A stretch of DNA of 64,000 bases from the NCBI GenBank assembly GCA_041663445.1, contig JBAYMR010000005.1:996-64995 (forward strand). The letters run 5' to 3'. Below the pieces are notes generated by a model. The model did no database searches, was not told the origin of the DNA, and was given only the letters and a program-made list of their open reading frames with translations. Position numbers and translations under genes: made by a program. This document shows, piece after piece, positions 1,868 to 44,739 of this stretch. Within the stretch, counting starts at the first letter, position 1. Every line of letters begins with the position of its first letter. The DNA comes from Candidatus Micrarchaeia archaeon. GTDB lineage: Archaea > Micrarchaeota > Micrarchaeia > Anstonellales > Anstonellaceae.

Positions 1868-2008
1868 AAATAAGTGATTACATGGAAGATGATGAAGAAA
1901 ATAGCGTGAGCGCTGCCGTAGCCAAGGAGCGCCCAAAGGCGACATTGGCAGAGCTTCTGCTGGCCTCGCTTTTGTGATGCGCGCTTGAAGGGAGAGAGCT
2001 AGAGATGC

Positions 2009-2016
2009 TTTTTTAA
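2009..2016 (+). promoter_or_regulatory. TATA-like box (TTTTTTAA) upstream of the tRNA-Glu locus
   Basis: A/T box about 26-33 nt upstream of nt 2042. That is the 5' end of the upstream acceptor-mimic minihelix, not the tRNA 5' end at 2084. Confidence 0.35.
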
Positions 2017-2041
2017 CCCCTTCGCGGGCAAATGAAACCAG

Positions 2042-2078
2042 GCTCCCATCCGCTTGCCTGCTGGCAAGTCTGGGGGCA
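2042..2078 (+). repeat. tRNA-Glu acceptor-stem mimic minihelix (5' leader copy)
   Basis: GCTCCCA (2042-2048, identical to the tRNA 5' acceptor strand) pairs with TGGGGGC (2071-2077, one U.G pair). It encloses hairpin CTTGCC-TGCT-GGCAAG. Confidence 0.6.
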
Positions 2079-2083
2079 CAAGC

Positions 2084-2288
2084 GCTCCCATAGTCTAGCC
2101 CGGTAAGGACGCGGGCCTTTCATTGAACTCTTTTCGGCGTATCGAAAAGCTTTCACGGAAAGAAGAAAGCCTGTAACACGGGTTCAAAAGCGAATCTGGC
2201 AATGCCGCCAACCCCTCGCAGGGTTGACGAACCTGTCGTGCTGATGCACGGCAATTTGCCCGCTTCGCGGGCAATCCCGTTGGGAGCG
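2084..2288 (+). tRNA. tRNA-Glu(UUC) with two introns (37/38 and T-loop 59/60)
   Basis: Manual cloverleaf from three exons. Exon 1 is 2084-2122: GCTCCCA TA GTCT AGCCCGGTAA GGAC G CGGGC CTTTCA. Exon 2 is 2168-2188: A GCCTG TAAC ACGGG TTCAAA. Exon 3 is 2275-2288: T CCCGT TGGGAGC G. The mature RNA is 74 nt. Confidence 0.75.
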
Positions 2289-2298
2289 TTTTTTTTTT
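2289..2298 (+). terminator. oligo-T tract immediately after tRNA-Glu
   Basis: T10 run directly after the discriminator base. Archaeal termination typically occurs at oligo-T. Confidence 0.5.
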
Positions 2299-2312
2299 CT
2301 TTTGCCAATGGA

Positions 2313-2354
2313 GCTCACAGCAAGTTGTGCAGGAGCACAACTGCGTTGGGAGCA
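2313..2354 (+). repeat. tRNA-Glu acceptor-stem mimic minihelix (downstream copy)
   Basis: GCTCACA (2313-2319) pairs with TGGGAGC (2347-2353) with one mismatch. It encloses the 7-bp hairpin GTTGTGC-AGGA-GCACAAC and is followed by a T-rich tract. It aligns with the last ~45 nt of intron 2 plus exon 3, with compensatory stem changes. Confidence 0.6.
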
Positions 2355-2550
2355 TTTTTCTTTTTGCTTTTAACTTACTTTCATATGAAACACACCATTA
2401 ATCGCAACAAAATGACGTTTTGCGCAGCTTTTTGGGAGCCTTTGCGCAGATTAAAAAGCCTATGGGTCATATGGTGGTTGCGGCCTTGAATCGTATGAAG
2501 CTTAATCAGAATGAGATGAATTCGACCGAAGGCGCCCCGCTGCAAGCAGC

Positions 2551-17884: not shown

Positions 17885-18110
17885 TGGGCCCGACGAGATT
17901 TTCGAGATGCCGCAAACATGGGGTTTGGGCTGTCATTCGAACTCGTGACCTACAGCTTTCCAAGACACAATCGTCTGTTCCGGAGGAACTGGCGAATTGC
18001 CGTGCGCTTGGCACGACATTTTTGCGAGAGCGTGTCATATAAGACGTGCGTCGGAGGAGACGCTTGCGCGACTCTTCCAATGCCGCTCTAACCAGCTGAG
18101 CTACGGGCCC
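17885..18110 (-). tRNA. tRNA, isotype unresolved, with a T-loop (59/60) intron and about 110 nt of further intervening sequence in the anticodon-arm region
   Basis: Minus strand reads GGGCCCG TA GCTC AGCTGGTTA GAGC G ... GCTGT AGGTC ACGAG TTCGAA [37-nt intron, 17899-17935] T CTCGT CGGGCCC A. The acceptor, D and T arms are perfect. The anticodon arm could not be assembled by eye. Confidence 0.6.
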
Positions 18111-44272: not shown

Positions 44273-44380
44273 AGCCCCATCGTCCAGTGGTCAAGGATAC
44301 GAGGCTCTGACGAACCGGATCTTGCCCGCCTTTCGGGGCGGAGATACCTCGGGACATCGGTTCGAATCCGATTGGGGCTA
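44273..44380 (+). tRNA. tRNA-Gln(CUG) with a 35-nt canonical intron
   Basis: AGCCCCA TC GTCC AGTGGTCAA GGAT A CGAGG CTCTGA [intron] A CCTCG GGAC ATCGG TTCGAAT CCGAT TGGGGCT A. Has the A1:U72 pair typical of archaeal tRNA-Gln. Bulge-helix-bulge geometry: CTCT pairs with GGAG, flanked by 3-nt bulges. Confidence 0.85.
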
Positions 44381-44403
44381 CTCTTTTCTTTACATTAGGT
44401 TTC

Positions 44404-44449
44404 GCCCCAATTCTCGCCACCCTTCGGGTGACGATCCGATTGGGGCTAC
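44404..44449 (+). repeat. tRNA-Gln 3'-end copy folded as a minihelix (unit 1)
   Basis: GCCCCAAT (44404-44411) pairs with ATTGGGGC (44439-44446). It encloses hairpin GCCACCC-TTC-GGGTGAC. ATCCGATTGGGGCTAC is identical to the tRNA from T-loop position 59 to 2 nt past the discriminator base. Confidence 0.6.
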
Positions 44450-44477
44450 TTTATCTTTCCTCTTTCCATTAGCTGCC

Positions 44478-44515
44478 GCCCCAATTCCCGCGGGGCTCGG
44501 CTGGATTGGGGCTAT
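44478..44515 (+). repeat. tRNA-Gln 3'-end copy folded as a minihelix (unit 2)
   Basis: GCCCCAAT (44478-44485) pairs with ATTGGGGC (44505-44512) and is followed by a T-rich tract. A collapsed third unit, GCCCAAATCGGGGC, lies at 44534-44547. Confidence 0.55.
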
Positions 44516-44547
44516 TCATTTTTTTACTTTCTTGCCCAAATCGGGGC

Positions 44548-44739
44548 ATGGCAAGGCACCACCCCCGGCGCTCAAGGACAAGCGGGAAAAAAATCGTCTA
44601 CATCACGCCGTACCGGAACCTTGCGGTGGAAATGAAGCAGATGTACGAGAAGAAAGGGGAGCATGCCGAAGTCGGGTCAGAGACGGACCGGGGCGGCACC
44701 ACGCTGTTCATGGTTTATGTATTCGAGAAAGGATATTGA
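44548..44739 (+). CDS. hypothetical small basic protein
   Basis: 63-aa ORF starting at MARHHPRRSR, directly after the third repeat remnant. No family recognised. Confidence 0.35.
   Translation: MARHHPRRSRTSGKKIVYITPYRNLAVEMKQMYEKKGEHAEVGSETDRGGTTLFMVYVFEKGY

Follow-up and report, generated by a model that had tools for sequence, protein, structure and literature searches.

The closest described relatives of the locus reported here are the tRNA genes of ARMAN-2, 56% of which are disrupted (Fujishima et al. 2011, PMC3239211). In that archaeon, pre-tRNA-Cys carries a 59/60 intron of the hBH type, pre-tRNA-Pro carries introns at 53/54 and 59/60, and the ε2 endonuclease cuts relaxed motifs (PMC3239211), an activity whose structural basis has also been described (PMC12397907). 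The gene that we describe shares with those of ARMAN-2 the phylum, the ε2 endonuclease, the 59/60 site, relaxed bulge–helix–bulge (BHB) motifs and the occurrence of several introns in one gene (PMC3239211); it differs in that the tRNA is Glu-UUC and the pair of sites is 37/38 and 59/60, and in that its genus shows within-genus presence and absence of both introns. Given that 59/60 introns, multi-intron tRNAs and ε2 cleavage have been published for ARMAN-2, the tRNA-Glu(UUC) gene is of a known kind and its processing enzyme is already on record; the locus is a clean new example. Two further bodies of work are relevant. Thermoproteales tRNA genes, as far as they are summarized in PMC3239211 (Sugahara et al. 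2008 and Fujishima et al. 2010, cited therein), likewise have non-canonical introns and a broad-specificity endonuclease, and near-identical introns at the same position of different tRNA genes; they belong, however, to Crenarchaeota with an (αβ)2 enzyme, whereas the present genome is from a DPANN archaeon with an ε2 enzyme. A model in which tRNA introns are gained when mobile elements integrate and recombine at tRNA genes (Sugahara et al. 2012, PMC3293823) also has points of contact with the present genus, in which tRNA fragments are duplicated beside interrupted genes and intron content differs among close relatives. By contrast with that model, the pieces here are 10–17-nt tRNA ends separated by hairpin modules of 55–90 nt, and no recombinase gene lies between the duplicated tRNA ends.

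We analysed a 64,000-nt stretch of DNA (the window) from Candidatus Micrarchaeia archaeon (assembly GCA_041663445.1, contig JBAYMR010000005.1, positions 996–64,995 of the forward strand); G000 denotes the genome analysed, and G001 and so on its relatives. Window positions 2084–2288 read GCTCCCATAGTCTAGCCCGGTAAGGACGCGGGCCTTTCA, 45 nt, AGCCTGTAACACGGGTTCAAA, 86 nt and TCCCGTTGGGAGCG, followed by ten T residues (Table 1). An earlier note, made from the letters alone, had proposed that a 74-nt tRNA-Glu(UUC) cloverleaf emerges when two segments are removed, and re-reading the window bore out its exon and intron coordinates, its boundaries and its anticodon. ARAGORN calls the 74-mer of the three joined exons tRNA-Glu(ttc), and, in agreement with this call, the unconstrained minimum-energy fold of the 74-mer is a cloverleaf (−29.9 kcal/mol) with U8, A14, the D-loop GG, the T-loop TTCAAAT and a 7-nt anticodon loop all in place. 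CCA is not encoded in exon 3. The unspliced sequence returned no tRNA with ARAGORN (default or intron mode) or with the Rfam tRNA model (gathering or E-value thresholds), as expected with a T-loop intron, a limitation of the tools that does not count against the gene. Taken together with the comparative data below, we put at about 90% the probability that 2084–2288 is a real tRNA-Glu(UUC) gene with two protein-spliced introns of the BHB type, at 37/38 and 59/60. Standard annotation would list this genome as being without tRNA-Glu(UUC), and genome-wide the assembly yields only 27 tRNA matches with Rfam and 29 with ARAGORN; recognizing the gene corrects the tRNA complement of a DPANN archaeon. 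The PurM gene that neighbours the tRNA locus has its closest sequences in Candidatus Micrarchaeota metagenome-assembled genomes.

Table 1 Features of the tRNA-Glu(UUC) locus, in window coordinates, and of five further tRNA genes with T-loop inserts
Feature	Position	Strand	Content
Promoter-like box (putative)	2009–2020	+	TTTTTTAACCCC
Leader insert	2042–2083 (42 nt)	+	tRNA 5′-end copy (GCTCCCAT), hairpin TTGCC/GGCAA, acceptor 3′-strand look-alike TGGGGGC
Exon 1	2084–2122 (39 nt)	+	Positions 1–37: acceptor 5′ strand, D arm, anticodon stem 5′ strand, CTTTCA
Intron 1	2123–2167 (45 nt)	+	Canonical 37/38 site
Exon 2	2168–2188 (21 nt)	+	Positions 38–59: A38, anticodon stem 3′ strand, variable loop, T-stem 5′ strand, TTCAAA
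Intron 2	2189–2274 (86 nt)	+	T-loop, 59/60
Intron 2 internal hairpins	2209–2226, 2238–2251, 2256–2274	+	
Exon 3	2275–2288 (14 nt)	+	Positions 60–73: T60, T-stem 3′ strand, acceptor 3′ strand, discriminator G
Oligo-T run (likely archaeal terminator)	2289–2303	+	T10 C T4
Downstream hairpin module	2313–2359	+	GCTCACA, hairpin GTTGTGC/GCACAAC, CGTTGGGAGCA (partial tRNA 3′-end copy), T5
Five T-loop-insert genes in G000	C1(−)49036, C1(−)135097, C10(−)54887, C11(+)51792, C15(+)11478	as bracketed	Coordinates of each gene's own strand

In support of the proposed exon structure, BLAST of window positions 2000–2400 against 40 related genomes gave matches that break exactly at the predicted exon borders, and the same exons recur in more than 30 of the relatives. 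Within the genus (11 genomes), the exons are identical in 10 and differ in G001 at three positions, including a G28U/U42G swap, of which G28U is the single change in exon 1. The inserts vary: the lengths of intron 1 and intron 2 in the 11 genomes are 45/86, 43/42, 0/42, 50/42, 18/0, 27/0, 19/35, 76/69, 0/44, 74/0 and 102/44 nt, that is, 0–102 nt for intron 1 and 0–86 nt for intron 2. Among relatives at large, the combinations include 0/42, 0/44, 0/68, 18/0, 27/0, 74/0, 45/86 and 0/0. Fetching additional loci allowed 38 Glu genes to be parsed, one of which (L126) is a mis-parse. Intron 1 is absent in G021, G011 and G020 and elsewhere measures 14–102 nt; of the 27 parsed UUC orthologues, 18 lack intron 2, which measures 35–107 nt in the others; and five UUC orthologues (G008, G023, G024, G026 and G031) have neither. 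The existence of intronless orthologues with these exons means that the spliced window sequence has the layout of an uninterrupted gene. Each intron is thus dispensable, being missing at exactly its site in several genomes of the genus while the exons are conserved. Presence and absence at both sites, like the exon structure itself, can be read directly from the alignments, and the locus is a well-controlled comparative example of tRNA intron gain and loss inside one genus.

The spliced product is also conserved as a structure. Across 13 distinct UUC orthologue sequences, 99.6% of stem cells are paired, and seven pairs, in the acceptor, anticodon and T stems, have changed on both sides, a number reached in none of 500 shuffles and approached by none of the slid controls, which are near zero. 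These three covarying stems are the ones that bridge the two introns. Consistent with this, the Rfam tRNA model (RF00005) matches orthologues whose exons are identical to those of the window with 55.6 and 54.8 bits (model positions 1–71), and an intronless orthologue with 64.7 bits.

The genome encodes the enzymes that such introns would need, both of them directly found. The earlier note had mentioned broad-specificity endonucleases in some ultrasmall archaea and had left the type of EndA to be looked up in the full genome; the remark holds for this Micrarchaeota genome, in which we found an EndA of 396 amino acids (L013:889–2079) that is a full-length orthologue of ARMAN-2 ε2 EndA (PDB 4FZ2, E = 2e-129). 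Residues 3–396 align with 4FZ2 residues 3–387, both Pfam endonuclease domains (catalytic and N-terminal) are present, and the Tyr-Lys of the ARMAN-specific loop (Y160 K161) and the equivalents of the bulge-binding R275 and W384 are conserved. Judged by its sequence, the protein is of the ε2 type, a single polypeptide of three units (αN–α–βC) with the ARMAN-specific loop. It shares with the ARMAN-2 enzyme (PDB 4FZ2 and 9W2K; Hirata et al. 2012, PMC3488258; PMC12397907) the end-to-end alignment and the Tyr-Lys, Arg and Trp residues; it differs in being an orthologue from another genus, with a predicted activity. The RtcB ligase is encoded as well. Its match is split in G000:C3:64108–66837 (L129) into model positions 1–50 and 49–426, about 1.4 kb apart in one 954-aa frame, which suggests an intein in the ligase gene. 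Separately, a 167-aa protein (G000:C2:28502–29005; L015:1270–1773) matches both tRNA-intron endonuclease domains weakly and below threshold (E = 0.016 and 0.037) and may be a degenerate second EndA-like subunit.

What we infer from these elements is splicing itself, above all that of the weak intron 2, along the following route. Transcription would begin from the T/A-rich box upstream of the gene and proceed as far as the oligo-T run, the ends would be trimmed by RNase P and a 3′ nuclease, and the ε2-type endonuclease of the genome would excise each intron by cutting in the 3-nt bulges at its two junctions. In intron 1, the outer helix would be provided by the anticodon stem, and a 4-bp central helix by CUUU (residues 32–35) pairing with GAAG of the intron. 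For intron 2, the outer helix would be the T stem, residues 54–57 would form a weak central helix with the 3′ end of the intron, and GCGAA/UUCGC may act as the inner helix. RtcB would then join the three exons, with CCA added afterwards.

We compared both junction pairs with the standard BHB geometry, in which the splice sites lie in 3-nt bulges that separate a 4-bp central helix (H) from an outer helix (h) on one side and an inner helix (h′) on the other. In intron 1, h is 5/5 and H 4/4, with CTTT (2117–2120) pairing with GAAG (2162–2165) and with the bulges CA|T and AA|A, but h′ amounts to about 1 bp, so that the motif is hBH-like and relaxed rather than strict. The good geometry that the earlier note had ascribed to this intron thus stands for the outer helix, for the CTTT:GAAG helix and for both flanking bulges, and does not extend to the inner helix. 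A 36/37 register was rejected; it breaks the outer helix, and 37/38 alone keeps h intact. The repetitive GAAAGAAGAAAG of intron 1 permits another register in the minimum-energy fold. Among 22 distinct 37/38 introns, 18 have H 4/4, and the central helix tracks the anticodon: GAAG or AAAG faces CTTT in UUC genes, and CTCT:GGAG is found in CUC genes.

T-loop introns follow a rule of the same kind, in which the T stem is h and T-loop residues 54–57 pair with the four intron bases that precede the last two; at least three of the four pairs with TTCA or TTCG form in 14 of 18 distinct introns, compared with 0.14 expected by chance. Intron 2 of the window has a relaxed and not a strict motif. Its T stem gives h 5/5, its central helix, UUCA against GGGC (2269–2272), has only 2/4 pairs, and a 5-bp h′ forms between GCGAA (2190–2194) and TTCGC (2264–2268), with the bulges AA|A and AA|T, so that its description as relaxed, with a weak central helix and A-rich 3-nt bulges, was accurate. 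The inner helix proposed along with it does exist as a pairing, but it competes with the terminal hairpin 2256–2274, and the compensatory changes in the only homologue found (in G022) preserve this hairpin rather than the inner helix.

Intron 2 has the poorest motif among all orthologues, and this raises the alternative that cleavage of the T-loop insert is inefficient or absent in G000, the locus being a decaying or leaky copy, with a functional tRNA-Glu(UUC) encoded in the 11% of the genome that is unassembled. The central helix is the weakest, and forcing the BHB conformation costs 7.8 kcal/mol, the highest value, compared with 0–4.9 kcal/mol in the orthologues. We attribute this cost to the competing terminal hairpin, which is stable and sequesters the 3′ splice-site strand. 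The assembly (1.2 Mb in 23 contigs) is moreover 89% complete. The conservation of the locus argues the other way. Its exons are the same in every one of the 11 same-genus genomes apart from G001, which differs at three positions, and its promoter-like box and terminator run are intact. No second tRNA-Glu(UUC) gene was found in the assembly, yet GAA codons are abundant (8,909 in long open frames); an ARAGORN 'tRNA-Glu(ttc)' at G000:C4 c47023–47227 is actually tRNA-Gln(UUG) with a 131-nt intron. Finally, cleavage of relaxed motifs by an ε2 enzyme is on record, and the substrates include a 59/60 intron of the hBH type (PMC3239211). We therefore regard a leaky copy as improbable.

A second alternative accepts the tRNA gene and disputes its joints, placing the T-loop splice at 57/58, 58/59 or 60/61, or taking the downstream copy at 2344–2354 as the 3′ exon. 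The AAA|A and CAA|T runs make 57/58, 58/59 and 59/60 indistinguishable by the mature sequence alone, and there is indeed a second 3′-end copy 56 nt downstream. Geometry nevertheless separates the registers. The 57/58, 58/59 and 60/61 registers break the outer helix; only 59/60 keeps the T stem intact as an outer helix flanked by 3-nt bulges, and only 59/60 fits every intron across genomes and yields the TTCAAAT T-loop of the intronless orthologues. The downstream copy was rejected as an alternative exon 3, as it lacks a T-stem strand able to pair with ACGGG (2178–2182). A different exon structure is thus very unlikely. The further possibility that the locus is an assembly artefact, or a look-alike that arises by chance once two segments may be deleted at will, would agree with the failure of standard tools on the unspliced sequence but is ruled out by the comparative data: the same exons, with stems that covary, occur in more than 30 independent genomes, and a tRNA covariance model matches orthologues.

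With the gene read as a tRNA-Glu(UUC) gene that has introns at 37/38 and 59/60, we turn to the relationships of the introns. A 32-nt stretch of intron 1 is identical at 30 of 32 positions to the 37/38 intron of tRNA-Glu(CUC) (G000:C1:98017–98048), and a motif of intron 1 is common to introns of Tyr and Ala genes. The 86-nt intron 2 has a homologue at 59/60 of tRNA-Lys(UUU) in G022, approximately 76% identical by BLAST and with compensatory changes in all three hairpins; no further copies were found in the 40 relatives beyond G022. A weak BLAST match of its last hairpin at G000:C7:60486–60511 falls in apparent coding sequence and was taken as chance. A 42-nt intron sits at 59/60 in Arg-UCU (G000 and G009), Thr-CGU (G009) and Glu-UUC (G003, G018 and G021), each copy having 0–1 mismatches to a degenerate search pattern with six variable positions; the G021 Glu-UUC copy is identical at 42/42 positions to the G000 tRNA-Arg(UCU) copy. 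Near-identical introns at the same position of different tRNA genes are the pattern by which mobile BHB introns are recognized, and the membership of both introns in families that occupy other tRNA genes of the genus suggests, from sequence comparison, that they have been mobile. The patterns resemble the intron transposition of Thermoproteales in so far as it is cited in PMC3239211, except that the evidence for mobility is here our own comparison of sequences and not a published survey.

A stronger version of this idea is that the 59/60 and 37/38 introns of the genus constitute an actively mobile family moving between tRNA genes that share a GGGTTCAAA|TCCC T arm. It is founded on the identical 42-nt copies in Arg, Thr and Glu genes of sister species, and we offer it tentatively, as a possibility that we hold to be somewhat less probable than its opposite. 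If it is true, the genus would offer a natural setting in which to work out how BHB introns are gained and lost; introns common to different tRNA genes in any case bear on how archaeal tRNA introns spread.

The flanks of the gene carry copies of the tRNA ends. The 5′ end of the tRNA is preceded, in most same-genus orthologues, by a TTTTTAAC(C/T) box at a distance of approximately 21–24 nt; applied to the window, this spacing leads to 2042, where the leader insert begins. This insert, which begins with the 5′-end copy and ends with the acceptor look-alike (TGGGAGC in G021 and G022), is present in G000, G021 and G022 and absent from most orthologues, including G003, G006, G012 and G018; in orthologues without it, the tRNA directly adjoins the promoter-proximal leader. 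The insert is presumably cleaved off with the leader by RNase P. T-rich runs follow exon 3 in most orthologues, and the downstream hairpin module is kept 3′ of the G012 orthologue with a compensatory hairpin change (GTCGTGC/GCACGAC). Such 3′-end copies are not peculiar to this gene. Among 39 tRNA genes in G000, 12 have one to three downstream copies of their own last 12 nt within 300 nt, at distances of 57–285 nt from the gene end (in the window, at 44381–44560), and no gene has a 3′-end copy on its upstream side. The copies begin at tRNA position 59/60, and conserved hairpins, for example, TTTTG...CAAAATC, lie in front of them. This shared starting point raises the prospect of a mechanistic connection between the introns and the hairpin modules that carry duplicates of both tRNA ends next to these genes.

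Interrupted tRNA genes are found elsewhere in the same genome. The second one of the window, on the minus strand at approximately 17885–18110 (G000:C5:18880–19105), does carry a T-loop insert, where the earlier note had reported a T-loop intron; the insert is 37 nt long and ends in CGAAaa|T, and the anticodon arm of this gene is heavily interrupted. Five further G000 genes have T-loop inserts (Ser-GCU, Gly-GCC, Lys-UUU, Arg-UCU and Tyr-GUA; Table 1). The Ser-GCU and Tyr-GUA inserts do not fit the rule for the central helix with residues 54–57, and the Gly-GCC and Lys-UUU genes also carry 37/38 introns. The only Rfam tRNA match in the window is tRNA-Gln(CUG) at 44273–44380, which has a canonical intron and is miscalled Ala(tgc) by ARAGORN in intron mode. 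The tRNA-Glu(CUC) gene at G000:C1:97928–98097, which ARAGORN miscalls Lys(ttt), carries a D-loop intron and, at 37/38, a homologue of UUC intron 1.
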